NCBI GenBank assembly: GCA_964400165.1
Contig: CAYNSX010000008.1
Span: forward strand, 91-64,090
From: an uncultured bacterium
GTDB lineage: Bacteria > Armatimonadota > Hebobacteria > CAYNSX01
Direction of reading: 5' to 3'
Length of the DNA: 64,000 nucleotides
Position 1 is the first letter of the stretch. The number at the start of each line of letters is the position of its first letter. The notes beneath the pieces are model-generated. The model searched no databases, was not told the DNA's origin, and saw only the letters and a program-made list of their open reading frames with translations. Positions 51,024 to 61,339 of this stretch are shown piece after piece. The position numbers and the translations under genes were made by a program.

Positions 51024-51593
51024 ATGAGCGCCAACCGCCAGCAGCAACTGCGCCAGGAACTGCACCGGCAGTTCGAGGCGCTGGCCGAGCCCTGCCACGG
51101 CGACATTTACCGGTGGGCGCTGCGCCTGACGCGCAATGCCGACCGGGCGGCGGACCTGACGCAGGAAGCGTTCCTCCGCGCCTTTGAAAAGTTTTATCAG
51201 TTTCAAGAAGGGACCAACTTCCGCGCCTGGGTCTCGAAAATTATGGTGAACATCCACATCGCCGACTATCGCAAGCGCCGCCACGCGCCGGATCAGGTCG
51301 CCTGGCAATACCTGACGCGGCCCGACGAGCACCGCCTCGCCGCTGCCGGCAACGGCCAGATGAATCCCGAAGCGGTGTATCTGGCGAAGGCACCCCTGGA
51401 GCGCGTCCGCCGCGCCGTCGACGACCTCCCCGAGCCGTACCGCGACGCGGTGCGCCTCGCCGACTTTGAAGAGTTGCCTTACGAAGAGATCAGCCGGAAA
51501 CTCGCCGTCCCCATCGGCACCGTCCGCTCCCGCATCGCCCGCGGGCGGAAGTTGGTGATTGACGCCCTGCGCCACGAAGCGGAGGCCGGATGA
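51024..51593 (+). CDS. ECF-type RNA polymerase sigma factor
   Basis: Region 2 (DLTQEAFLRAFEKF) and region 4 (SYEEISRKLAVPIGTVRSRIARGR). Confidence 0.85.
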   Translation: MSANRQQQLRQELHRQFEALAEPCHGDIYRWALRLTRNADRAADLTQEAFLRAFEKFYQFQEGTNFRAWVSKIMVNIHIADYRKRRHAPDQVAWQYLTRPDEHRLAAAGNGQMNPEAVYLAKAPLERVRRAVDDLPEPYRDAVRLADFEELPYEEISRKLAVPIGTVRSRIARGRKLVIDALRHEAEAG

Positions 51594-52408
51594 GCCGGTT
51601 GCGCCGCTGGCGGGCGCATGTCATCTGCGCCCTCACCAAGCCCTGGCTCGCCGCCCTGGTCGACGGCGAAATCAAGGGCCGCTGGTGGGCGTCGGTGGTC
51701 GTCAAGCACCTCGAAGAGTGCCCCCCCTGCGCCGAACTCGTCGAGCAAATGCGCGCTACGAAGTCTGTCGTCGCCGACGCCGCCGGGCCCGCCCCCCAGC
51801 CGCCGGCGTCGCTCTGGCCCGCCATCGAACAGCGCCTGGCCGAAGCCCCCGTCCACTACCCGGCGCGCTTCGCGCCCCTGTGGGCGCCGGTGGGCGTCTT
51901 CCTCGTCGCCGTGATCGGCGTCACCATTGTCCTGCTCGCCCGGCACCCCACGCCGGCGCTCGCCGCCGAGCAATTCCGGCGGCACTATATGCAGTCGCTC
52001 CCGTCGCGCAAGTTCGGCGAATTGGAAGTCAGCGACACGGCCGCTGCGCAATCGTGGCTGCAGCAGCGCGTCACCTTCACCTGTCACCTGATGCCGCAGA
52101 TGGCGGGCTATGCGCTGGCGCAAGTCGGCACGATGAGCGACGAGACCGGACGCACCGTCGCCGTCGCGGCCTTCCGCCACGATGATGAATTGGTGGTGCT
52201 CTACGCCATGCCCAGCGCCGGCGCGACGCCGCCGCCCTGGGACCGGGACCGCACCGAGAACGGCGACATCTATGTCACTTCGGTCACGGGCACCTATCTG
52301 GCCTGCTGGGTGCACGGCGCGACGATGTACCTGGCGATCGGCCGGCGGCCGCTGGTGCGCTTCGCCCGCGATTGCCTGGCGGACATGAACGGCCGCCGGC
52401 CCTACTAG
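51590..52408 (+). CDS. Anti-sigma factor, zf-HC2 type, membrane-spanning
   Basis: HLEECPPCAELV zinc motif, TM VGVFLVAVIGVTIVLLA, ATGA-coupled to the sigma gene. Confidence 0.7.
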   Translation: MSRLRRWRAHVICALTKPWLAALVDGEIKGRWWASVVVKHLEECPPCAELVEQMRATKSVVADAAGPAPQPPASLWPAIEQRLAEAPVHYPARFAPLWAPVGVFLVAVIGVTIVLLARHPTPALAAEQFRRHYMQSLPSRKFGELEVSDTAAAQSWLQQRVTFTCHLMPQMAGYALAQVGTMSDETGRTVAVAAFRHDDELVVLYAMPSAGATPPPWDRDRTENGDIYVTSVTGTYLACWVHGATMYLAIGRRPLVRFARDCLADMNGRRPY

Positions 52409-52413
52409 GTCAT

Positions 52414-52722
52414 CTAGTATTCCGCGTCGAGTTCCCGCAAGTACGCCACGATGTGCCAAATCTGACTCGACAGCATCTTGTCGCCGAAGGCTGGCATCGG
52501 ATGCGAGCCGTGCAGCACCCGCGTCACGATCTGTTCGTCCGTCAAATCGCGCAGCCGGTCCTGCAGATTGGCGGCGCCGTTCTTGATGCCCTCGGGCGTT
52601 TGCGCCCGCCCGTCCGGTCCGTGGCAGCGGAAACAATTCTTTTCATACAGGGCCTGGCCGGTCACTTGGTCGCCTTTGTAGGGCGGCGGCGCCGGGGACG
52701 GCGACGCGCAACTGCCCAGCAT
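52414..52722 (-). CDS. Class I c-type cytochrome (monoheme). The N-terminal lipoprotein-like signal may extend further upstream, so the start is uncertain
   Basis: CFRCHG heme-binding motif. The track ORF start (52914) overlaps the upstream cytochrome gene by 125 nt. Confidence 0.65.
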   Translation of the reverse strand: MLGSCASPSPAPPPYKGDQVTGQALYEKNCFRCHGPDGRAQTPEGIKNGAANLQDRLRDLTDEQIVTRVLHGSHPMPAFGDKMLSSQIWHIVAYLRELDAEY

Positions 52723-52789
52723 CACAGTCAGGACGACCACGCCCGGAAACAGCCAGCCCCGGCCCGCGCACCGCGCTGGCCCGCATCGC

Positions 52790-53212
52790 CTACTGCTTGA
52801 CGATGAGTTTCCGCAGGTAGGCGACGACATTCTCGATGTCGTCCGCCGAGAGTTTCGACCCGAACGCATCCATCTTGCCGACGCCGTTGGTGATATTGGC
52901 GGCCAACTGCTCATCCGTTCGCCGGTCGAGGAGGTCGTGCAGGTCGGGCGTGTTCACCGCGCGCCCCATCCGGGCCTTGCCGGTGCCGTCGACATCGTGA
53001 CACTTCGCGCACTGCATCTCATAGACGGTCTTGCCCGCCGCGGCATCGCCCGCAGTCGCCGGTGGCACGGGCACCGGCGTGGTGTTCGTCACCGTGTTGG
53101 TCGCGGGCGGCGTGTTGATGGCCGGGCCACCGGTGCCGATGCAACTGGTTAACATGACCGTGAGCGTCAACAGTCCGGGCAGCGCCCACCGCCAGCCCCG
53201 TCGCCGCCGCAT
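52790..53212 (-). CDS. Class I c-type cytochrome, lipoprotein
   Basis: Lipobox LTSC after signal peptide MRRRRGWRWALPGLLTLTVM. CAKCHD heme motif. Confidence 0.75.
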   Translation of the reverse strand: MRRRRGWRWALPGLLTLTVMLTSCIGTGGPAINTPPATNTVTNTTPVPVPPATAGDAAAGKTVYEMQCAKCHDVDGTGKARMGRAVNTPDLHDLLDRRTDEQLAANITNGVGKMDAFGSKLSADDIENVVAYLRKLIVKQ

Positions 53213-53218
53213 CGCGCC

Positions 53219-53350
53219 CTAACCGATCAGCCCGAAGGCGGCGATGAGCCAAAGCGAGGCGAAAAAGCCGGCGAAATACAGCACATACCAGAGCGCGGTA
53301 AAGTCGCGCTCGGGCGCCGTCTTGGGCGCGTTTTCAGGTTCCGTCGCCAT
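53219..53350 (-). CDS. Possible 43-aa single-TM protein (MATEPENAPK...FFASLWLIAAFGLIG)
   Basis: Untracked small ORF between the MvhD-like and cytochrome c genes. Hydrophobic C-terminus. Confidence 0.3.
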   Translation of the reverse strand: MATEPENAPKTAPERDFTALWYVLYFAGFFASLWLIAAFGLIG

Positions 53351-53780
53351 CGCCGGTCTCCGCCTTCGCTGGAGTTGTACCCCCGCCCGCCTCTTTCGCG
53401 CGCAGGAAATCGGTGAAATCCTTCAAGGTTTGCAGCAGATTGCCGTACTCGCCCGCGGCGAAATACAAGGTGCGCACCCGCTCCTTGTCCACCGACGCCT
53501 TCAATTTCGGCGTCATCGTCCCCGCGAAGCGCTCCTCGCAGAACAGGTTGCCCTCGCGGAAGTGGCAGTCGCCGATCGGGCAGCCGAGCGCGAAGTAGCC
53601 CGAGGCGCCGTTCTTCAGCGCCATCTCGCCCCAGCCGGCCTTGATCATCCCCGAGCACGGCACCTTGATGACGCCGACATTCGGCAACTCCTTCAGCCGG
53701 CCGCGCTCGTCCACTTTCCCCTCATCCCACAGGCGCACCGCCCATTCGCAGCACATCCCGACGATCCGCGGGTCGGCCAT
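53334..53780 (-). CDS. MvhD/FlpD-like iron-sulfur protein (methyl-viologen-reducing hydrogenase delta subunit family)
   Basis: VPCSGMIKAGW...GASGYFALGCPIGDCHFREGNLFCEERF matches the MvhD Cys pattern. Confidence 0.55.
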   Translation of the reverse strand: MADPRIVGMCCEWAVRLWDEGKVDERGRLKELPNVGVIKVPCSGMIKAGWGEMALKNGASGYFALGCPIGDCHFREGNLFCEERFAGTMTPKLKASVDKERVRTLYFAAGEYGNLLQTLKDFTDFLRAKEAGGGTTPAKAETGDGDGT

Positions 53781-54913
53781 CAGGCGTCCCCCTTCGCCAG
53801 CGCCACCACCATCTCATCCAGCGCCTTCTCCCGGTAGCCGGGCAGTTCGATCGCCTGGAAGTTGCACGAGCCGACGCAGATGCCGCACTCGACGCACCGC
53901 GCCTCGAGCACCTGCGCCAGGAACTTCGGCTTGGACCCTCGCTTCACCGCGGTCGGCACCATGATGATGGCGTTCGCCGTGCAGTCCTTGGCGCAGATGT
54001 AACAGCCGACGCACTTCTCCTCGATGACCTCGGCCACATTCGAGTAGGGCCGCTGCGTGTAGTAGGGCAGGAAGAACAGCACCACCGTGATGAAGAACAG
54101 CAGCGCCACCACCTGCACCGCCGGCAACGACGCCGTCAGCACATACGGCAGCAGGAAGAACCAGTCCACTTCCATGCCCGACGGCGGCAGCACCGGGTTG
54201 CCCGGCGTCGCCGTGCTCACCGCCGGATACAGCGCCGCGATCACCAGCAGCGTGCCGAACGCCATCAACTGCAGCGCCCGCGGCGGATACACCACCGCCC
54301 GGCTGATGCGATAGAAGTGCCACCACATCAGGAAGAAGAACAGGAACGGCAATCCGATGTGGAAGAACAGGAACCGCGACAAGGTGAGATCGTTGATCGC
54401 CGCCCCGCCCAGGAAGAACCCCGACAGCCACACGCCGGCGCCCGGAATCTGCCGCAGCGCATCCGCCGTCACTTGCGTAATGAGAATGGCGCGCTCGTCC
54501 CAGGCCAGCACATACCCGCTGATGCCGATGAAGAACACGAACGCCAGCATCACCACGCCCGAAATCCACTGGTTGGTGCGCGCCGCGCGGTACCGGTCGG
54601 TCAGCCACACCCGCAGCAGATGCAGGAAGGAGAAAATGACAAACGCATCGCCGCCGTAGCGGTGCAGACTGCGCACGATGCTGCCGTAGGGCACCGTCGT
54701 CGTGAACCAGGTGACGCTGGCATAGGCGCCTTCGAGCGTCGGCACGAAATACATGAAAATGAAGATGCCCGTCAGCACCTCGAGCCAGAACACCAGACTC
54801 GGCCACGATGAGTGGTAGTAGACGAAATTGAACCGGCTGCCGAACACCTTGTTCAGCAGGCGGTCGATCTGAATCCACCAGTAGCCGGCCGATTTCAGGA
54901 ACGCTTCGTACAT
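53780..54913 (-). CDS. Cytochrome b (b6-like N-terminal domain) fused to a C-terminal 2x[4Fe-4S] ferredoxin domain
   Basis: Heme-ligand His in TM helices (HRYGGDAFVIFSFLHLLRV, FFHIGLPF). CVGCYICAKDC and CVECGICVGSC cluster motifs. Confidence 0.8.
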   Translation of the reverse strand: MYEAFLKSAGYWWIQIDRLLNKVFGSRFNFVYYHSSWPSLVFWLEVLTGIFIFMYFVPTLEGAYASVTWFTTTVPYGSIVRSLHRYGGDAFVIFSFLHLLRVWLTDRYRAARTNQWISGVVMLAFVFFIGISGYVLAWDERAILITQVTADALRQIPGAGVWLSGFFLGGAAINDLTLSRFLFFHIGLPFLFFFLMWWHFYRISRAVVYPPRALQLMAFGTLLVIAALYPAVSTATPGNPVLPPSGMEVDWFFLLPYVLTASLPAVQVVALLFFITVVLFFLPYYTQRPYSNVAEVIEEKCVGCYICAKDCTANAIIMVPTAVKRGSKPKFLAQVLEARCVECGICVGSCNFQAIELPGYREKALDEMVVALAKGDA

Positions 54914-55368
54914 CAGGCCGCCCCCGCCGCTTCTTCTTCCGCCGGCACGAAGACATTCTGATAGACCAGGTCGCTCACCGCCAGCAGCAGCAGAATGGCG
55001 CCCAGCAGCAGCGCAATCTGTTCGTAGTTCCGGCTGACGCCCTTCCGGTCGTTGGTCGCCGGCGCGGTGACTTCGGCGATCTTCTCGCGCAGCGGCCGCA
55101 GTTTTGCGTCCACCTCAATCTGCTTCTCCGCCTGGGCCTTCGCCGACAATTGCGACCGGTATTGGAAGTTCTGCTCCGGATCGAGCGGCTTGTCCGGCGC
55201 GGCGGGCTTCGGGGGCTCGACCTTCGTGGTCGCCAGGGCCACCGTCTGCTCACGCACCGCCGGGTCGTCGAGCGGGCTGGTCAGTTGCACCGTCACCGCC
55301 AGACCGCCCAGCGCGAAACTCGCCAGCGCCGTCGCCGCGAACACCAGCACCGCCAGCGCCACTTTCAT
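54913..55368 (-). CDS. Membrane protein with N- and C-terminal TM segments, unknown function
   Basis: MKVALAVLVFAATALASFALGGLAV and LLLGAILLLLAVSDLV. ATGA-coupled on both sides. Confidence 0.45.
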   Translation of the reverse strand: MKVALAVLVFAATALASFALGGLAVTVQLTSPLDDPAVREQTVALATTKVEPPKPAAPDKPLDPEQNFQYRSQLSAKAQAEKQIEVDAKLRPLREKIAEVTAPATNDRKGVSRNYEQIALLLGAILLLLAVSDLVYQNVFVPAEEEAAGAA

Positions 55369-55631
55369 CGGCGCTTCCCCGTCGGCCGCGGCGCCAGTCG
55401 CGCCAGCAGCCACTCGAATGGCGCCAGCCGCCGCTCCAGTTTCCCACTCGCCCGGAACCGGGCGTAATCCAGAAACGCCACCCCCGTCACGCACACCAGC
55501 ACCAGCAGCGCCGAGGCCGCCAGCCCGAACGGCGCCCACGACGACTGCCCCAGCGCCCGCCACGCGGCGAAGAACCAACTCAACGCCACCACCGCCCCCA
55601 AAAACAGCGTCCACCACAGCGCCCGCTTCAT
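55365..55631 (-). CDS. Small two-TM membrane protein (88 aa)
   Basis: MKRALWWTLFLGAVVALSWFFAAW and LAASALLVLVCVTGVAFL. Confidence 0.45.
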   Translation of the reverse strand: MKRALWWTLFLGAVVALSWFFAAWRALGQSSWAPFGLAASALLVLVCVTGVAFLDYARFRASGKLERRLAPFEWLLARLAPRPTGKRR

Positions 55632-57397
55632 GGCGCCGGAGCCCCTGCCGCCAGTTTCGCCGGCTGCGCCGCCGGCTTGGGCGCCGTCCGCAGCGCGCCA
55701 TACGCCCAGCCCAGCCCGCCGCCCGCCAGCATCGCCACCGCCCAGCCGGGCCACAGCCACGCCAGCCGCCGGGCAACGATGATGCCGACCTCAATCCCCT
55801 CGTTCACATCAGGAGTGGCCAGGTTGTCCGGGATGCCCTGCGCACCGAACACGGCCACCGTGAAGATGAGGAAGTACACCACCATCGCCAGCGCCGTCCC
55901 GCGCCGCGCCGAATCCGGCAGCGTGCGGAAGTGCCAATACATCGCCAGCATGAACGGGATCGCCGGAATGCCCACCGCCAGGTTGTAGAGGACGCGCACC
56001 TGCACGATGTTCTGCGGCCAGGGGCCGAAGTACAAGTGCGCCTCGCTCCACTTGCCCATCGCCATCATCTTTGCGTTCAGCCACAACACCATTCCGTGGA
56101 ACATCCCCGGCGTGCCGTAGGTCGCCGCCCCGGCGCGGTACATCCCCTCGAGGCAGAAGATGTAAATCAGGAACGCGATCGGCACCCACAACGCCAACGC
56201 CGACAACCCGAAGAATGGTTTCGTCTTTCGCTTCTGCGGATATTGCAGCACCCAGCCCGCCAGCACCGCCACGAACATGCTCATATACCAGATGTAGGGA
56301 TCCTTGTTGATGTTTACATAACTGATGATGATCATGAACGAGAACAAGATCCAATACAGCAGCGCCATCACCCCAATGATGATGAACAGCGGCCGCTTCG
56401 ACGCCAGCCGCTCGCGGATGGTGTCGAACCACGGCATCATAATCGCCACCGCCGGCAGCAGCATCGTACCGATGACCGCCGGCACCGGCTTCATCTCCTT
56501 GAACATCTGATACAGCGCCAGGAAATACCAGTCCGACAGCACGGGCACCGGCGTCGTATCCGGGTCGGCGCGCGGGCCCATTGTCGCCGGCAGCATCGCC
56601 GACACGATGATGACCATCAGCGAGTAGGTCACAATCGTCGGCCAGGGCAGGTTCATCCGGCTGACCTTCACCCACGGCGTGTTGATCGCCGGATAGCGCC
56701 GCTTGTAGAAGTGTAGTTCCGTCAGCAGGATGAGCAGCAGCGAGAAGGTGTAGTGCAGCATATAGAACCGCGTGATCGTCGCCGGTCCGATCCCCGACCC
56801 GCCCAGCAGCAGTTGCGCGGTCAGCACCCCCATCCGGGTCAGGCCGAGGTACGGCATATCGTCCATGTAGGTCGGGAAGGTGGCGAAGACCTTCGTCGCC
56901 CAGAACGCCCGCTGGTTCCAGATGAGCAGGTAGCCCGTCAGCCCCGAATACATCCCGAAGAGCAGCAGGATGATGGCAATGGCGTAACTCAATTCGCCGG
57001 GCCGCTTGTATTCGCCGCAGAACACCATCCGGAAGATGCGCGCGGTGATCAGGATGATGAACGCGTCGGCGCCATACTTGTGCACCCCGCGGATGAGCCA
57101 GCCGAGCGGAATGCCGTGTTGAATTGTGTTGATGCTGTCCCAGGCGTTGGTCTCGGTGGGGATGTACCAGAACATCAGCACGAAGCCGGTAATCAAGACC
57201 AGAACGAGGTAGTAGTACGCGCCGCCACCGGCCAGGAACAGCGGGTTCCGGCGCTTCTCCGCATCGGTGGCGTGTTCGTCGAAGAGGTCGAGGTTGTCCA
57301 GCCGGACCCGCCACCAGCGGGCCGTGCGGTCGAGCACCGCCGCCGGGCGCCAGTACGCAAGCAGGCGGTGCAGGCGGCTGGTCTGCACTTCAGGCAA
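55628..57397 (-). CDS. Cytochrome b of a bc-type complex, long form (589 aa, extra C-terminal TM helices)
   Basis: GADAFIILITARIFRMVF and b6/b N-terminal domain features, followed by a subunit-IV-like region. Confidence 0.85.
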   Translation of the reverse strand: MPEVQTSRLHRLLAYWRPAAVLDRTARWWRVRLDNLDLFDEHATDAEKRRNPLFLAGGGAYYYLVLVLITGFVLMFWYIPTETNAWDSINTIQHGIPLGWLIRGVHKYGADAFIILITARIFRMVFCGEYKRPGELSYAIAIILLLFGMYSGLTGYLLIWNQRAFWATKVFATFPTYMDDMPYLGLTRMGVLTAQLLLGGSGIGPATITRFYMLHYTFSLLLILLTELHFYKRRYPAINTPWVKVSRMNLPWPTIVTYSLMVIIVSAMLPATMGPRADPDTTPVPVLSDWYFLALYQMFKEMKPVPAVIGTMLLPAVAIMMPWFDTIRERLASKRPLFIIIGVMALLYWILFSFMIIISYVNINKDPYIWYMSMFVAVLAGWVLQYPQKRKTKPFFGLSALALWVPIAFLIYIFCLEGMYRAGAATYGTPGMFHGMVLWLNAKMMAMGKWSEAHLYFGPWPQNIVQVRVLYNLAVGIPAIPFMLAMYWHFRTLPDSARRGTALAMVVYFLIFTVAVFGAQGIPDNLATPDVNEGIEVGIIVARRLAWLWPGWAVAMLAGGGLGWAYGALRTAPKPAAQPAKLAAGAPAP

Positions 57398-58010
57398 TGC
57401 CGCCCGCCTCCCAGCCGGTCACGCGCACATCACCCTCGGCGGTGACGCTGTAGAAGAACCGCCGCGGCGGCCGCGGCGCCGGGCCGAAGATGACCTTGCC
57501 CGCCTCCGCCAGATCGTAAGTGCTGAAGTGGCACGGACAGGCGAAGACCGGGTTGTCCGGCAGGCGCCCCTCGGGCACGCTGTAGGCGCTGGTGATGTGC
57601 TTCTTGTCGGTCTCGAAATTGAAGATGCAGCCCAGGTGCGGGCAGATGCGCGCGTAGACCGCGATGCCGTCCTTCTTCTCCGACTCCGTCGTGCGCGCCG
57701 GTTCCGGCAGTTTGACGATGTACCCGGGCACGCGCGTGATGTTGATTTTGCGGGGGGAATACTCGACCGACTTCTGCTGAAAGACGAATTCCGCGATCGA
57801 CCAGTCTTGGGCCAGGATCGGGTCCTTGACATTCCCCACCACCTGCTCCGCGCCGGGCGTCACCGACAGCGCCCGCTGCCCCAGCGGGATGGGGGGCGCG
57901 TCCGGCTTGAACAGCCGCAACAGCGACGGCACGATGGCGCCCGCCAGCGACAGCACCGGCAGCGCCGCCAGCCACTTCACCGCTGTCAGCAGAAAACTCC
58001 GCCGTTTCAT
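57390..58010 (-). CDS. Rieske [2Fe-2S] iron-sulfur protein with a Tat signal
   Basis: MKRRSFLL twin-Arg signal. CPHLGC...CPCHFS Rieske boxes. Confidence 0.85.
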   Translation of the reverse strand: MKRRSFLLTAVKWLAALPVLSLAGAIVPSLLRLFKPDAPPIPLGQRALSVTPGAEQVVGNVKDPILAQDWSIAEFVFQQKSVEYSPRKINITRVPGYIVKLPEPARTTESEKKDGIAVYARICPHLGCIFNFETDKKHITSAYSVPEGRLPDNPVFACPCHFSTYDLAEAGKVIFGPAPRPPRRFFYSVTAEGDVRVTGWEAGGIA

Positions 58011-58297
58011 CCGGTCCGCCCTTCCGCACGCGGTCCGTCGTCATCCGCAGACCGCGCCCAGTGCGACGCCGTCGGCGCCTGCCCGTGTGCGCCGCCGGCC
58101 GTGGGCTGCTCCTTCGGAAACGCCGTGCCGGGCCACGCCCGCCAGTTCATCAGCGCGATCAGGAAGATGCACGCCCAGATGACCCACAGCCACCACGGCA
58201 CGCGGCCGATCTTTTCCTTCATCCCGCCGACCTCGAAGATGCGGTCTTCGAGCGGCAGGTGCTCCTGTGACGGGTCGGCGGGGTGTTCGTCGCTCAT
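58007..58297 (-). CDS. Small single-TM membrane protein (96 aa)
   Basis: VPWWLWVIWACIFLIALMNW. Coupled in the operon. Confidence 0.4.
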   Translation of the reverse strand: MSDEHPADPSQEHLPLEDRIFEVGGMKEKIGRVPWWLWVIWACIFLIALMNWRAWPGTAFPKEQPTAGGAHGQAPTASHWARSADDDGPRAEGRTG

Positions 58298-58300
58298 CGC

Positions 58301-58555
58301 TTATTCGTACGACTCCGTTTCGTCGGTCACTTCCAAGCGCGGGAATTCCGCCGCCAGTTCCTGCTCGAACATCCGCCGCGAAGTCTCTTCGGCGTTGCGG
58401 AATTGCCCTGACTTCCACGCCCAGAGCAAGAAGCACGCCGCACCGAGAAAGAAGGTGCCGCCCGCAAAGAAATGCACCGTGTAGCCCGCCGAGGTCAGCC
58501 CCTGCTCGACGACCGGCTGCACCGCGCAACTCGGACACAGCAACGGAATAATCAT
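58301..58555 (-). CDS. Small membrane protein (85 aa), possible cbb3 accessory subunit (CcoQ/CcoS-like by size and position)
   Basis: MIIPLLCPSCAVQ...FFAGGTFFLGAACFLLWAW. The start overlaps the ccoO/P stop. Confidence 0.4.
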   Translation of the reverse strand: MIIPLLCPSCAVQPVVEQGLTSAGYTVHFFAGGTFFLGAACFLLWAWKSGQFRNAEETSRRMFEQELAAEFPRLEVTDETESYE

Positions 58556-59679
58556 TGCGGGTTCCCCGGCGCGCCGGGCGGCGGCACCGCCGGCGTTGTC
58601 GCGGCGGGCGCGGTCGTCTCCGACAACTGCTGCGCCTCTTGCAGGCGCCGCAAGACATCCGGCGGCGGCGTGCCCGGCAGCTTGTCGGCCGGCGCCCGGC
58701 CGGCCAGATACTTCACATAGTTCACCAGATTCCAGCGCTGTTCTTCGTTCAGGCCCCGGCCCCATTCGGGCATCTGCGTCCCGGGCACGCCGGTGCTAAT
58801 GCGCCAGAACAGGTACTGGTCGAGCGCGTTGTACTCGTCTTCGGGTGCCTTCGAACCGAACGGCTTCTCATACTTATCGGTGATGCCGTCGAACCGCCCA
58901 TCGCGGAAGTCCGCCGGGCGCTTGGTGAAAATCTTCCCCGCCGGCCCGTCGCCGCGGCCGAGCGGCCCGTGGCAGGGCAGGCAGTTCTGCTGGAAGATGC
59001 CGGCGCCCGTCCCCACCGATCCCCAACTGATGCCGAGCGTGTTCTTCTTTTCCCGGAACGACACGGGAATGGACATGAAGCGCTCACCGAGCTGATCCTT
59101 CTCGAGCGACTTCTGCCGGTTCTTGCCGAGCGTCTGCAGATACGCGACCAGCGCCTTGGCGTCCTCGCCCGGCTTGTCTGGCGCGCCGTCGAACAGGAAC
59201 GGGAACGGCGCCATCAGCGACCCGGGGAAGACGGTGCGCGGGTTATACAGCCGGGCGTAAAACCAATTGTCGGGGAATCCCCGAGAACCGATGTTGCTCA
59301 AGTCGGGGCCGGTGCGCTCGGTGCCGAGCACATGCGGGTCGTCGTTCACGAAATCCGTCGCTTCCGACACCGGCCCGAAGTCGCGGTCCTGCGGGCGCAC
59401 GAACTGTGTGTGGCAATACCAGCAGCCCTCGCGCAAGTATACCTTGCGGCCCTCGGCGGCCAGCCCCTCGTAGGTGTTCGTCCGGTCCGTCGCCTTCGGC
59501 GCGAAGGTAAACGCCGGCATCCCCACGATCATGAAGGTCGCGGCCAGCACGGACGCCAGCGCGCCGACCGCCAGCAATGGGAAGGTCGGCGACCGGCCCG
59601 GCACCTTCAGCAGGTGCTGCACAATGGCGCCGAAGATGATGACGAACAGCAACACCGCGCCGCCGATGACGATGGCCAT
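58552..59679 (-). CDS. cbb3-type cytochrome c oxidase fused CcoO-CcoP-like subunit (two heme c sites)
   Basis: GCWYCHTQ (CcoO signature) and a downstream CLPCHG. N-terminal TM anchor. Confidence 0.8.
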   Translation of the reverse strand: MAIVIGGAVLLFVIIFGAIVQHLLKVPGRSPTFPLLAVGALASVLAATFMIVGMPAFTFAPKATDRTNTYEGLAAEGRKVYLREGCWYCHTQFVRPQDRDFGPVSEATDFVNDDPHVLGTERTGPDLSNIGSRGFPDNWFYARLYNPRTVFPGSLMAPFPFLFDGAPDKPGEDAKALVAYLQTLGKNRQKSLEKDQLGERFMSIPVSFREKKNTLGISWGSVGTGAGIFQQNCLPCHGPLGRGDGPAGKIFTKRPADFRDGRFDGITDKYEKPFGSKAPEDEYNALDQYLFWRISTGVPGTQMPEWGRGLNEEQRWNLVNYVKYLAGRAPADKLPGTPPPDVLRRLQEAQQLSETTAPAATTPAVPPPGAPGNPQ

Positions 59680-59682
59680 CGC

Positions 59683-61146
59683 CTACGCTCCCGCCGCCGG
59701 CGCCGCGGCGGCGCCGTTGGTCGGCGCGATCCCCGCCGTCGCCGGCTGCCGCGCCATCAGCCACATGTTGTAAGCAAAGAGAATCGCGCCGACTAGCAAC
59801 ATGACGCCGCCGACCATCCGGAAGAAAAACATCGGTCGCAGGTACAGGATGATCTTCTGCACCGGTTCGCCCATCCACCAGCCCATCGATTGCTCGAGGC
59901 CCGCCACCATCAGCGCGGAGAAGAAGATGAAGAAGCCGAGGAAACTCAACCAGAAGTGCGCCCCGATCAGCGCGCGCGACGGCCACTCGCGCTTCAGGAT
60001 GCGCGGCAGAATGTAGTAGATCGCCGCCCACAGCCAGAAGGCAAAAGTCCCCAGCAGCGCCATGTGCGCGTGCGCCACCACCCAGTTGGTGAAGTGAATG
60101 TAGGGGTTCAGCCACTTCGCCGCCTGCATCGGCCCCTGGACGCAGGTCACGAAATAGTGCAGTGCGCCGGCGACGAGGAAGCGCGTCGGCATGTCCTCGA
60201 CAATCAGCCGCCAGCGCCCGCCCAGCGTCATGTAGAAGTTCACCAAGACCGTCAACACGGGCAGCATCAGCATGCCCGAGAAGAACACCGAGATCGTCTT
60301 CAAGTATTCCGGGATCGGCGCCTGCAAGATGTGGTGCGCCCCAATCGGGGCGTAGAAAATCGCCAGCGCCCAGAACCCCACCAGCGACAGGCGGTGCGAC
60401 CAGAGCGGCTGCCGCGACAGGACGGGCAGCAGGTAATAGGCGCCGCCGACGCCCATCGTCGTGAACCACAGCCCCAGGATGTTGTGTCCGTAAAACCAGT
60501 TGGCGATGGCGTCATTGAGGCCGGTCAGATTGACGAAGGCGCGGTTGCCCACCATGAACACAATCGGCATCCAGAGGAAACTGCCGACGATGTACCAGAC
60601 CGACACATACAACTGCTTCTCGCGCCGCAGCGCCACCGTGAACAGGAACCCCACCACCAGCATCCCGAGCGCGGCGACCAGCAGCCAGTCGGCGGGGGCG
60701 ATGAGTTCCGCGTACTCGCGGCCCTCGGTGTATCCGAAAAACAGCCCGCCGATCCCGATGACCAGCGCCAGATTCCAAATCCACAGCGCATAGCGCGCCA
60801 GCGCCGGGCTGTAGAACGGCCGCCGGCACAGCCGCGGGATGATGTAGAGGGCGGCCCCGACTTGGGCTTGGGAGAGGAACCCGAACGCCACGGCATTGAC
60901 ATGCACCGGCCGGGCGCGGCCCATCGTCAGGTACGAGATGTGGCCCCAAAAGTCCGGAAAGACGAATTTGACGGCGGTCAGCACCCCCGCCGACATGCCC
61001 AGCACCAACCAAAAGGTCGCCGAGTAGAACCACGAAACGACAATGCGCTCGGTCTCGGCTTCGCGCAGCTCTTCGCGCTGTGCGGCCTGCTCGACTGCGA
61101 TGGCCTTCGCCATCCCTCTCCCCCCCGGTCCGCCCCGCGAAATCAC
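59683..61146 (-). CDS. ccoN: Heme-copper oxidase subunit I, cbb3-type (CcoN)
   Basis: 12+ TM helices, NWFYGHNILGLW, GAHHILQ, VVAHAHM His-ligand motifs. Adjacent CcoO. Confidence 0.85.
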   Translation of the reverse strand: MISRGGPGGRGMAKAIAVEQAAQREELREAETERIVVSWFYSATFWLVLGMSAGVLTAVKFVFPDFWGHISYLTMGRARPVHVNAVAFGFLSQAQVGAALYIIPRLCRRPFYSPALARYALWIWNLALVIGIGGLFFGYTEGREYAELIAPADWLLVAALGMLVVGFLFTVALRREKQLYVSVWYIVGSFLWMPIVFMVGNRAFVNLTGLNDAIANWFYGHNILGLWFTTMGVGGAYYLLPVLSRQPLWSHRLSLVGFWALAIFYAPIGAHHILQAPIPEYLKTISVFFSGMLMLPVLTVLVNFYMTLGGRWRLIVEDMPTRFLVAGALHYFVTCVQGPMQAAKWLNPYIHFTNWVVAHAHMALLGTFAFWLWAAIYYILPRILKREWPSRALIGAHFWLSFLGFFIFFSALMVAGLEQSMGWWMGEPVQKIILYLRPMFFFRMVGGVMLLVGAILFAYNMWLMARQPATAGIAPTNGAAAAPAAGA

Positions 61147-61339
61147 GCCATTCGCCGGGCGGAGGGGCTTGTACTTTTTTTCACAAAGTCCGGCGAAACT
61201 CTACGACGCCCGCGGCGTCAAGTCAAGACAGACGGGCCGCCCTGACGCGTGCCTCCGACACGGGCGGAGGGGGCTTCGGACGGCTCTGTCGGGTATTCGG
61301 GACAGCCGCCGCGAACCCCTGTGGAACAATTTGACGGGA

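Follow-up and report, generated by a model that had tools for sequence, protein, structure and literature searches.

The 64,000-nucleotide stretch of contig CAYNSX010000008.1 from an uncultured member of the Armatimonadota (hereafter the window, at its full length) carries an operon in which the genes for a cbb3-type oxidase stand next to those for a Rieske protein and two different cytochromes b. The first of these cytochromes b, termed here cytb1, lacks the helix-B ligand of the n-side heme bH; the second, cytbFd, possesses all four axial His residues, is fused to a ferredoxin with two [4Fe-4S] clusters, and is followed by a separate FlpD/MvhD-type [2Fe-2S] protein. The reading that we favor, at a rough probability of 45%, is that these proteins build one bc-type complex III-IV unit with a heterodimeric cytb1:cytbFd core, in which a wire of iron-sulfur (FeS) clusters would take the place of the Qi site. 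That the Rieske protein, cytb1, cytbFd and FlpD form one functional unit is, in our judgment, quite probable.

The pattern of heme ligands in cytb1 was assessed in a census of 114 aligned orthologs from genomes and metagenomes. An HMMER alignment with cytochrome b6 (1VF5) shows that cytb1 has His where b6 carries its p-side heme ligands His86 and His187, and Arg where b6 carries His100, the helix-B ligand of the n-side heme bH; a BLAST comparison of cytb1 with cytbFd reveals the same Arg substitution. Both bL ligands are His in all 114 orthologs. The helix-B bH position, on the other hand, is occupied by Arg (109 orthologs) or Lys (5) and never by His, and its counterpart in helix D is Tyr in 77, Phe in 19, Arg in 7, Leu in 6 and His in 5 of these proteins. 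Hence, cytb1 does not have the four His residues of the bc1/b6f complex, and in 109 of the 114 orthologs the His in helix D has disappeared as well. The ef-loop motif of the Qo site reads S-D-W-Y in every ortholog, and its leading Ser is not among the common residues (P/A/G) that Kao and Hunte (2014; PMC4122944) list for this position. We predict from these comparisons that members of the cytb1 family bind heme bL alone and have an intact Qo site, without the canonical bH/Qi end. A preliminary description of this DNA had taken the Rieske/cytochrome b pair to be a standard set; the absence of the helix-B bH ligand does not bear this out, and the idea of a standard Rieske/cytochrome b complex with an added module was consequently rejected. 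With bH ligation missing from cytb1, the FeS arm appears to stand in for the normal n-side end of the low-potential chain and not to be an add-on.

Clustered at 50% identity, the cytb1 family comprises about 15 clusters that make up a tight clade (E < 1e-79), and the next clade is found near 1e-46. The latter (P0145, L175:498-1664; P0146, L178:131-1567) also carries Arg for the helix-B bH ligand, together with a PDWY motif; P0145 is 34% identical to cytb1 in the sole pairwise comparison. In one member of this clade, two small open reading frames (ORFs) and then a PQQ-like beta-propeller protein follow. A further protein of 686 amino acids (P0147), considered as a possible cytbFd-cytb1 fusion, was discarded because its N-terminal 365 residues contain neither a cytochrome b nor a Fer4 domain.

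cytbFd is 23% identical to cytb1 and is collinear with it through helices A-F. Its relatives split into two arrangements: two-domain proteins as in the window (group A), and triple fusions in which cytochrome b, ferredoxin and FlpD form one polypeptide (group B). His84, His98, His185 and His199 as well as the two Cys sets 301/304/307/311 and 340/343/346/350 are invariant, the four His being found in 94 of 94 and the eight Cys in 93 of 93 orthologs, so that all four axial heme ligands are in place. The Qo-like motif of cytbFd is VDWF; its Asp is conserved in 90 of 93 orthologs and its Trp in 54 of 93, whereas the LDWF motif of the stand-alone proteobacterial triple fusions is invariant (Trp in 69/69). 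The relaxed Trp in group A fits a situation in which quinol oxidation has been handed over to cytb1, while the group B protein must act alone. Taken together, the relaxed Qo motif of cytbFd and the lost bH of cytb1 are, on the ligand and motif counts, a putative case of complementary degeneration. As for the Qi site, a cytb1 devoid of bH could not possess a canonical one. The b6 Cys35 used for heme cn is found in neither cytb1 nor cytbFd, nor does either of them have, at +5 relative to the bH ligand, the His of bc1, a position that we take, unaligned, from the bovine protein. Qi-site residues are too variable across lineages to be called from sequence only.

The AlphaFold (AF2) model of cytbFd (predicted local distance difference test [pLDDT], 93.1; predicted template modeling score [pTM], 0.88) has six transmembrane (TM) helices with the customary surface helices, and then a ferredoxin fold; a Foldseek search aligned about 285 columns of it to cytochrome b chains of bc1 complexes. 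Because the cytochrome b part begins on the n-side and traverses the membrane six times, the ferredoxin domain is predicted by this model to face the cytoplasm. The preliminary description had proposed that a second cytochrome b fused to a two-cluster ferredoxin is followed by an MvhD-like protein, and both profile searches and solved MvhD chains confirm that a true MvhD/FlpD homolog is present: FlpD scores 73.2 bits against PF02662 (gathering cut-off, 22.3 bits) and matches the MvhD chains 5ODC_D and 8RVU_F at 1e-18. The Cys residues C11, C42, C67 and C72, by which we recognize the MvhD/FlpD family, are kept in 89 of 89 orthologs; of the N-terminal CCxxC of MvhD, only one Cys is conserved across the FlpD orthologs. 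A proteobacterial triple fusion is modeled as a single rigid unit (pLDDT, 93.6; pTM, 0.89). Together, cytbFd and FlpD form a wire of two [4Fe-4S] clusters and one [2Fe-2S] cluster on the n-side of a di-heme cytochrome b.

This arm has a counterpart in HdrA2, with whose C-terminal ferredoxin plus MvhD part (positions 571-771) the ferredoxin domain and FlpD are collinear, and we predict that they serve, as in HdrA2, as a short FeS electron wire. Unlike Mvh-Hdr systems, however, the operon in the window contains no HdrA flavoprotein, HdrBC or hydrogenase, and its wire is attached to a bc-type cytochrome b. The preliminary description had noted that such modules normally accompany heterodisulfide reductase or hydrogenase systems; a link to flavin-based bifurcation of the Hdr type finds no support here, since no HdrA-like or hydrogenase-like gene was found among the 13 operon genes or the conserved neighbors in related loci. 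The suggestion in the preliminary description of an extra cytoplasm-facing FeS route fares better. Such a route in a bc-cbb3 assembly is a reasonable reading, given the predicted cytoplasmic position of the ferredoxin, the tight coupling of the genes, and the linkage of the module to Rieske/cytochrome b genes in all cases and to cbb3 genes in most.

The partners of the two cytochromes b appear intact. The Rieske protein has a KRRSF sequence at its N-terminus, CPHLGC as box I and CPCHFSTY as box II, and the six Cys/His residues, which comprise the cluster ligands and the disulfide pair, are kept together with the RR pair in 105 of 105 orthologs; judged by these residues, it is a bona fide Rieske protein that looks fully functional. 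CcoN finds its best sequence matches in the Protein Data Bank (PDB) among cbb3 CcoN chains (9G6B, 3MK7, 8SMR; 1e-70 to 1e-62), and its match to TIGR00780 falls under the equivalog cut-off of NCBIfam. Counterparts of H60, H207, Y251, H257, H258, H345 and H347 of Pseudomonas stutzeri are all present, and this pattern is kept in 40-41 of the 41 orthologs encoded upstream of related operons. The window CcoN thus has the six His ligands and the helix-VII Tyr of C-family oxidases, and as these ligands and the cross-linking Tyr are retained, it is a C-family O2 reductase and not a nitric oxide reductase. In P. stutzeri, Glu323 forms a hydrogen bond with the heme b3 ligand. The corresponding residue is Gln in the window CcoN ("VQGP," window 60135-60150) and in 34 of the 41 orthologs, and Gln or Thr in 40 of them, which suggests a distinct subclade of C-family oxidases. 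The ccoO product is a fusion, with FixO at residues 36-165 and Cytochrome_CBB3/Cytochrom_C at residues 223-325, and it matches NF011054, "bifunctional subunit II/cytochrome c," at 3e-35. A mono-heme CcoO encoded beside ccoN is thereby combined with a CcoP-type heme, with CcoP represented by this single fused heme domain only.

A second type of CcoN homolog was noted in 12 loci (L015:11586-13136, L016, L039, L041, L127, L130 and others) of the Sysuimicrobiota and some other lineages, where a full-length protein with 26% identity over 433 residues is encoded directly after FlpD. It is devoid of the CuB, heme b3 and Tyr residues, retains at most a shifted low-spin His, and is followed by CcoO-like genes; it looks like a cofactor-poor, "dead" oxidase subunit.

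A search with cytbFd yielded 246 cluster representatives. More than 570 species-level genomes carry a relative, the best match among these species representatives being 46% identical. In group A, the genes form the block cytochrome c - Rieske - cytb1 - small TM ORF - cytbFd - FlpD. This arrangement was found in Armatimonadota, a Symbiobacterium metagenome-assembled genome (MAG), Sysuimicrobiota, Ca. Fervidifonticultor and Melainabacteria/Obscuribacter, and further in Holophagaceae and other Acidobacteriota, Deinococcales and Firmicutes MAGs. The Rieske/cytb1/cytbFd/FlpD design extends over at least six phyla, and the loci that carry it number well over a hundred. When cytb1 was used as the seed of a reciprocal scan, 80 metagenome loci came up; counting those with enough flanking DNA, cytbFd was present in 54 of 54, FlpD in 50 of 50 and Rieske in 65 of 65. 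Conversely, cytb1 and Rieske accompany cytbFd in 28 of 28 group A loci found with cytbFd as the seed. A ccoN gene is present in the flanking DNA of 25 of 32 metagenome loci and of 13 of 20 genome loci (about 70-80%). On these counts, the notion that the module always occurs with cbb3 was abandoned; in some of the loci, it is a degenerate CcoN-like gene that lies downstream.

Group B occurs in Proteobacteria and a few other bacteria. Its triple fusion is encoded directly after an sNOR-like set of COX2-like, COX1 and SCO1 genes, often with UbiA, and is followed by a gene for an uncharacterized protein of 167-181 amino acids; nirS lies nearby, and no Rieske or cytb1 gene was found in these loci. 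Further along, these loci often encode a divergent member of the COX1 family as well as a second, paralogous cytochrome b that is joined to a BenC-like [2Fe-2S]-FAD-NAD(P)H reductase module (BenC model, 1.4e-55). Examples of group B are L001:5642-13613, L007, L012 and L061-L092. The divergent COX1-family protein (460-470 amino acids) keeps H72, H220, H352 and H354, and neither a conserved helix-VII His pair nor a PDB sequence match was found for it. The triple fusion sits where "orf1" lies in the norSY-senC-orf1 cluster of ammonia-oxidizing bacteria, to which it may correspond.

Strict co-inheritance, the complementary ligand losses and a functional Rieske/oxidase pair make a heterodimeric bc core the simplest model for the operon. 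According to this model, cytb1 and cytbFd would form a heterodimeric core with one type of Rieske protein and would share out between them the work of a normal cytochrome b dimer. Quinol would be oxidized at the Qo site of cytb1. The first electron would pass through the Rieske protein to the c-type cytochromes and CcoO, and from there via the cbb3 oxidase to O2; the second would leave bL of cytb1 for bL and then bH of cytbFd, and continue through the two [4Fe-4S] clusters to the [2Fe-2S] cluster of FlpD. Electron transfer from bL to bL within the bc1 dimer is well established and is applied here by analogy. The second electron would thus end on a cytoplasmic acceptor instead of a quinone in the Qi site; such an acceptor is not encoded in the operon, and to picture it as a ferredoxin-like or a thiol/disulfide carrier would be a guess. 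The direction of flow is the weakest step in this proposal, and we hold an outward course, toward a cytoplasmic acceptor, only tentatively, at odds slightly below even. A stronger version, with an obligate heterodimer, bifurcation at Qo and a cbb3 oxidase that pulls the high-potential branch while the second electron is driven across the membrane into the three-cluster FeS wire, so that quinol brings about the reduction of a low-potential cytoplasmic carrier such as ferredoxin under aerobic conditions, strikes us as unlikely.

Several observations weigh against the heterodimer model. The window cytb1 itself is one of the five orthologs that retain the helix-D His, and it may thus conceivably hold an unusually ligated bH. 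In the clade of P0145 and P0146, no cytbFd gene was found in the readable few kilobases downstream, the upstream DNA being cut, and a mono-heme cytochrome b may hence not need a cytbFd partner. Conversely, the proteobacterial fusions of cytochrome b, ferredoxin and MvhD occur without Rieske or cytb1, so that cytbFd may be self-sufficient. The paralog with the BenC-like NAD(P)H reductase suggests, by analogy, an input of electrons from the cytoplasm and not an output. Clusters of the ferredoxin type are, as a rule, much stronger reductants than bH, and a flow directed to the cytoplasm would require tuned potentials. Finally, no gene for a cytoplasmic partner is conserved beside the operon.

A first alternative is that the operon encodes two independent, co-regulated enzymes. 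One would be a Rieske/cytb1 quinol:cytochrome c reductase that runs without a Q cycle, where both electrons exit via the Rieske center and bL is structural or a safety valve; the other would be a separate, homodimeric cytbFd-FlpD (with the 43-amino-acid ORF product) linking a cytoplasmic carrier with the quinone pool or a heme-copper enzyme. The proteobacterial triple fusion indeed lives without Rieske/cytb1, beside sNOR-like and other heme-copper genes, related cytochromes b lacking bH have no adjacent cytbFd in the readable DNA, and the subset of loci with a CcoN-like gene directly after FlpD resembles the proteobacterial order. Independent enzymes would, however, hardly be expected to co-occur in 100% of cases, both ways and across several phyla, nor to show complementary losses, with bH gone from cytb1 and the Qo motif of cytbFd relaxed only in those loci that possess cytb1. 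The two cytochrome b genes are, moreover, separated by small membrane ORFs that are themselves conserved, and the genes are translationally coupled. We consider the two-enzyme alternative doubtful.

An alternative that concerns direction would make the FeS arm a point of electron entry, in which reduced ferredoxin or another donor feeds FlpD, the ferredoxin domain and then bH of cytbFd. The electrons could either reduce quinone at an n-side site of cytbFd, as a hard-wired form of the ferredoxin-driven cyclic flow proposed for the Qn site of b6f, or travel via bH and bL to Rieske, cytochrome c and cbb3, yielding a donor:O2 oxidoreductase that bypasses the quinone pool. In Mvh-Hdr complexes, HdrA receives its electrons from MvhD in the inward direction; in the proteobacterial paralog, the same cytochrome b is joined to a BenC-like module that in known enzymes oxidizes NAD(P)H; and in both lineages the module adjoins terminal reductases, all of which would suit such an entry. 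However, the strict Qo motif of cytb1 and the Rieske protein argue for quinol oxidation as the core reaction, and the second electron then needs an exit; the route to the oxidase would run down the membrane potential, a Cys for a cofactor of the heme cn type is missing from cytbFd, and no donor-generating enzyme is encoded nearby. We rate electron entry as improbable.

That cytbFd and FlpD are non-catalytic, acting as a redox sensor, as an assembly or cofactor-delivery factor, or as an electron sink that drains a stuck bL and thereby limits superoxide, is a very remote prospect. In its favor, the operon is linked to no enzyme that would convert a substrate in the cytoplasm, and an Mrp/ApbC-type FeS-assembly ATPase follows it in some Armatimonadota; against it, all heme and cluster ligands are strictly kept over a large evolutionary distance, the module is present in more than 570 species-level genomes, and its domains form a continuous wire that fits a main-line electron carrier.

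The closest known relatives of the cytbFd module are those of the "PDWF-FeS clade," described by Kao and Hunte (2014; PMC4122944), in which cytochrome b is combined with 4Fe-4S and MvhD in Magnetospirillum and Turneriella, and with a ferredoxin/flavin reductase, likewise by fusion, in Alicycliphilus. These authors reported no Rieske protein in the PDWF-FeS clusters and assigned no function to them. The likeness to cytbFd lies in the xDWF motif (VDWF here), the 4Fe-4S dicluster with its eight invariant Cys, and the MvhD/FlpD module; the triple fusions are retrieved by the window cytbFd at E ~1e-50 and are its nearest relatives outside the two-domain group. In the PDWF-FeS clade, MvhD is fused and Rieske is missing, whereas in the window FlpD is encoded by a separate, overlapping gene, with Rieske and a second cytochrome b upstream, and the module as a whole has Rieske/cytb1 on one side and c-type cytochromes on the other, in the company of cbb3 genes. 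The combination of cytochrome b, 4Fe-4S and MvhD is thus not without precedent, a point on which the preliminary description needs correction. The survey by Kao and Hunte (2014; PMC4122944) dropped all cytochromes b missing any of the four His, a filter by which cytb1 would have been excluded.

The bc1-cbb3 supercomplexes of Pseudomonas aeruginosa (8SMR) and Rhodobacter capsulatus (6XKW) join, as is the case here, a Rieske/cytochrome b unit to a C-family oxidase; the window CcoN matches the CcoN chains, and the membrane part of cytbFd the cytochrome b fold, of these supercomplexes. They are, however, built on a homodimer of a normal di-heme cytochrome b with a Qi site and have no FeS arm. In terms of sequence, both cytochromes b of the window match cytochrome b6 best (1VF5_A, 1e-26 and 2e-31). 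Different from b6f, there is no heme cn Cys, the helix-D His residues have the spacing of bc1, helices E-F are part of the same polypeptide, the FeS clusters are covalently attached, and bH ligation is missing from one of the cytochromes b. Stromal ferredoxin has been proposed to feed the n-side of b6f, which would be a functional analogue of a ferredoxin domain docked at the n-side. The concept of a quinol-reactive cytochrome b tied to cytoplasmic FeS/flavin subunits is likewise realized in the Rieske/cytochrome b complexes of anammox bacteria, which have extra NAD(P)-oxidoreductase/FeS subunits, and in QmoABC of sulfate reducers. The protein families differ from those in the window: Qmo combines an HdrE/NarI-type cytochrome b with HdrA-like flavoproteins, and the anammox complexes contain multi-heme c and FAD subunits. 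To our knowledge, neither of them pairs a cytochrome b lacking bH with a ferredoxin-fused one.

Our literature searches found no description of the arrangement with two cytochromes b; Kao and Hunte (2014) cover the proteobacterial fusion alone. A "complex III/IV" gene combination in Melainabacteria is noted in PMC6349859 (citing Soo et al.), where a term search for "MvhD" finds no entry and the passages on complex III are silent on a ferredoxin-fused cytochrome b and on missing bH ligands. The Melainabacteria/Obscuribacter loci have the same operon as the window.

Rieske/cytochrome b complexes are generally treated as homodimers of a di-heme cytochrome b that run a Q cycle, and the assembly outlined here departs from this picture. 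As far as our searches show, a Rieske-partnered cytochrome b without bH alongside an FeS-wired one is new; previously, only the fused proteobacterial relative had been noted (Kao and Hunte, 2014). If these proteins indeed form one complex, nature would offer in it a case on which to test how electrons pass between the halves of a bc dimer; the complex would also show a way in which a Qi site can be replaced, and would put to the test a Qo bifurcation that feeds low-potential electrons to the cytoplasm. For anammox bacteria, such a bifurcation has already been put forward, and its reverse has been invoked for the ferredoxin-dependent cyclic flow at b6f. Should the stronger version of the model with quinol-driven ferredoxin reduction be true, a natural bc dimer would depend on the inter-monomer transfer from bL to bL, and if the ferredoxin electrons were to return via an NDH-1-type complex, one could speak of a "ferredoxin-extended Q cycle." In practical terms, the annotation as "complex III/IV" is affected in Melainabacteria, Armatimonadota, Deinococcales, Acidobacteriota and Symbiobacterium, and the proton yield of a normal Q cycle should not be assumed for these microorganisms.

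The operon as a whole (window 52414-61146, minus strand) was seen in the preliminary description as thirteen tightly coupled genes, and the ORF listing supports this in full; the count includes five small membrane ORFs (Table 1). Adjacent genes overlap by 1-17 nucleotides or leave gaps of no more than 6; only the last cytochrome c, with its uncertain start, deviates from this rule. Overlaps of start and stop codons run along the entire operon. The domains originally named (ccoN, the ccoO/P fusion, Rieske, the cytochromes b, FlpD and the cytochromes c) were all matched in Pfam/NCBIfam profile searches. Independent gene calls on a contig that is about 90% identical at the protein level give the same ORFs, the small ones included. 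The gene order recurs elsewhere; it is kept in many genomes at 37-50% protein identity, which speaks for real genes and against chance ORFs of a sequence with 66% G+C. The likely start of ccoN is the ATG at 61113, preceded by GGGAGAGGG, and ccoO begins 3 nucleotides past the ccoN stop. The genes that flank the operon lie on the opposite strand. A promoter consensus scan of the region gave one match only, upstream of ccoN, a count within the expectation from shuffled sequence and hence weak evidence; the only terminator-like matches fall within coding sequence, and an Rfam search of the window gave no match. As the preliminary description proposed, the operon may be co-transcribed and its products may form a supercomplex.

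Table 1. Genes of the respiratory operon and the upstream promoter match, with positions in the window.
Feature	Position	Strand	Support
ccoN, C-family (cbb3) heme-copper O2 reductase subunit I	59683-61146	-	COX1 2.4e-83; TIGR00780 1.8e-82
ccoO with C-terminal c-type heme domain (CcoP-like)	58552-59679	-	FixO 1.3e-28; Cytochrom_C 4e-15; two CxxCH
84-amino-acid membrane ORF, weakly FixS/CcoS-like	58301-58555	-	PF03597 2.7e-4, under cut-off
96-amino-acid single-TM ORF	58007-58297	-	No Pfam/NCBIfam match
Rieske [2Fe-2S] protein, twin-arginine signal anchor	57390-58010	-	PF00355 7e-7; TIGR01416 4e-14
cytb1, long cytochrome b, 589 amino acids	55628-57397	-	Cytochrome_B 1.7e-31; Cytochrom_B_C
88-amino-acid two-TM ORF between both cytochrome b genes	55365-55631	-	BLAST homologs at the same position in many loci
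151-amino-acid ORF, hydrophobic segments at N- and C-terminus	54913-55368	-	No family match
cytbFd, 377-amino-acid cytochrome b-2x[4Fe-4S] ferredoxin fusion	53780-54913	-	Cytochrome_B 2.4e-30; Fer4_7/Fer4_9 at residues 300-355
FlpD/MvhD-type [2Fe-2S] protein, cytoplasmic	53334-53780	-	PF02662 2.5e-20, over cut-off
43-amino-acid single-TM ORF overlapping the end of FlpD	53219-53350	-	ORF listing; BLAST homologs (sm46)
Mono-heme cytochrome c, lipoprotein-type signal LTVMLTSC	52790-53212	-	Cytochrome_CBB3 7.6e-16; CAKCH
Second mono-heme cytochrome c, start uncertain	52414-52830/52914	-	Cytochrome_CBB3 3e-15
Sigma-70-like promoter match TTGACT-17-TAGAGT, upstream of ccoN	61198-61226	-	Consensus scan

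None of the small ORFs reached the cut-off of a Pfam or NCBIfam family, and each has a counterpart elsewhere. The ATG of the 84-amino-acid ORF overlaps the ccoO stop; a gene of the same length is called at this place in the close relative, and homologs are found at the equivalent position in several loci. The 96-amino-acid ORF overlaps the Rieske start by 4 nucleotides and corresponds to a 97-amino-acid gene in the close relative. An ATGA overlap connects the 88-amino-acid ORF with the cytb1 stop; the close relative has an 88-amino-acid gene as well, and the homologs were labeled sm85/sm88. The 151-amino-acid ORF overlaps both of its neighbors and is matched by a 150-amino-acid gene, and genes of 43-46 amino acids are called after FlpD in the close relative and in Armatimonadota loci, with homologs (sm46) in several loci. 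A relationship of the small ORFs to the proteobacterial protein of 167-181 amino acids was considered and rejected, as BLAST finds no link.

The two terminal cytochromes c are paralogs with 35% identity; the contig with about 90% protein identity has a single one at this place. For the last of them, the in-frame ATG at 52830 overlaps the preceding gene by 41 nucleotides, whereas the ATG at 52786, 4 nucleotides past the preceding stop, is out of frame with the heme domain; either an indel in a G+C-rich run or an unusual overlap accounts for this odd start. In some Armatimonadota (L003:11897-13018, L005:11983-13086), the operon is succeeded by a gene for an Mrp/ApbC-type Fe-S cluster carrier ATPase, which does not occupy this position in the window. 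Here, genes for an extracytoplasmic function (ECF) sigma-70 factor (window 51024-51593, plus strand) and a putative anti-sigma protein of 272 amino acids (window 51590-52408, plus strand) converge on the 3' end of the operon and stop 5 nucleotides away from it, and this pair is kept in the relative with about 90% identity. Genes for lipopolysaccharide transport on a closely related contig point to a diderm host.

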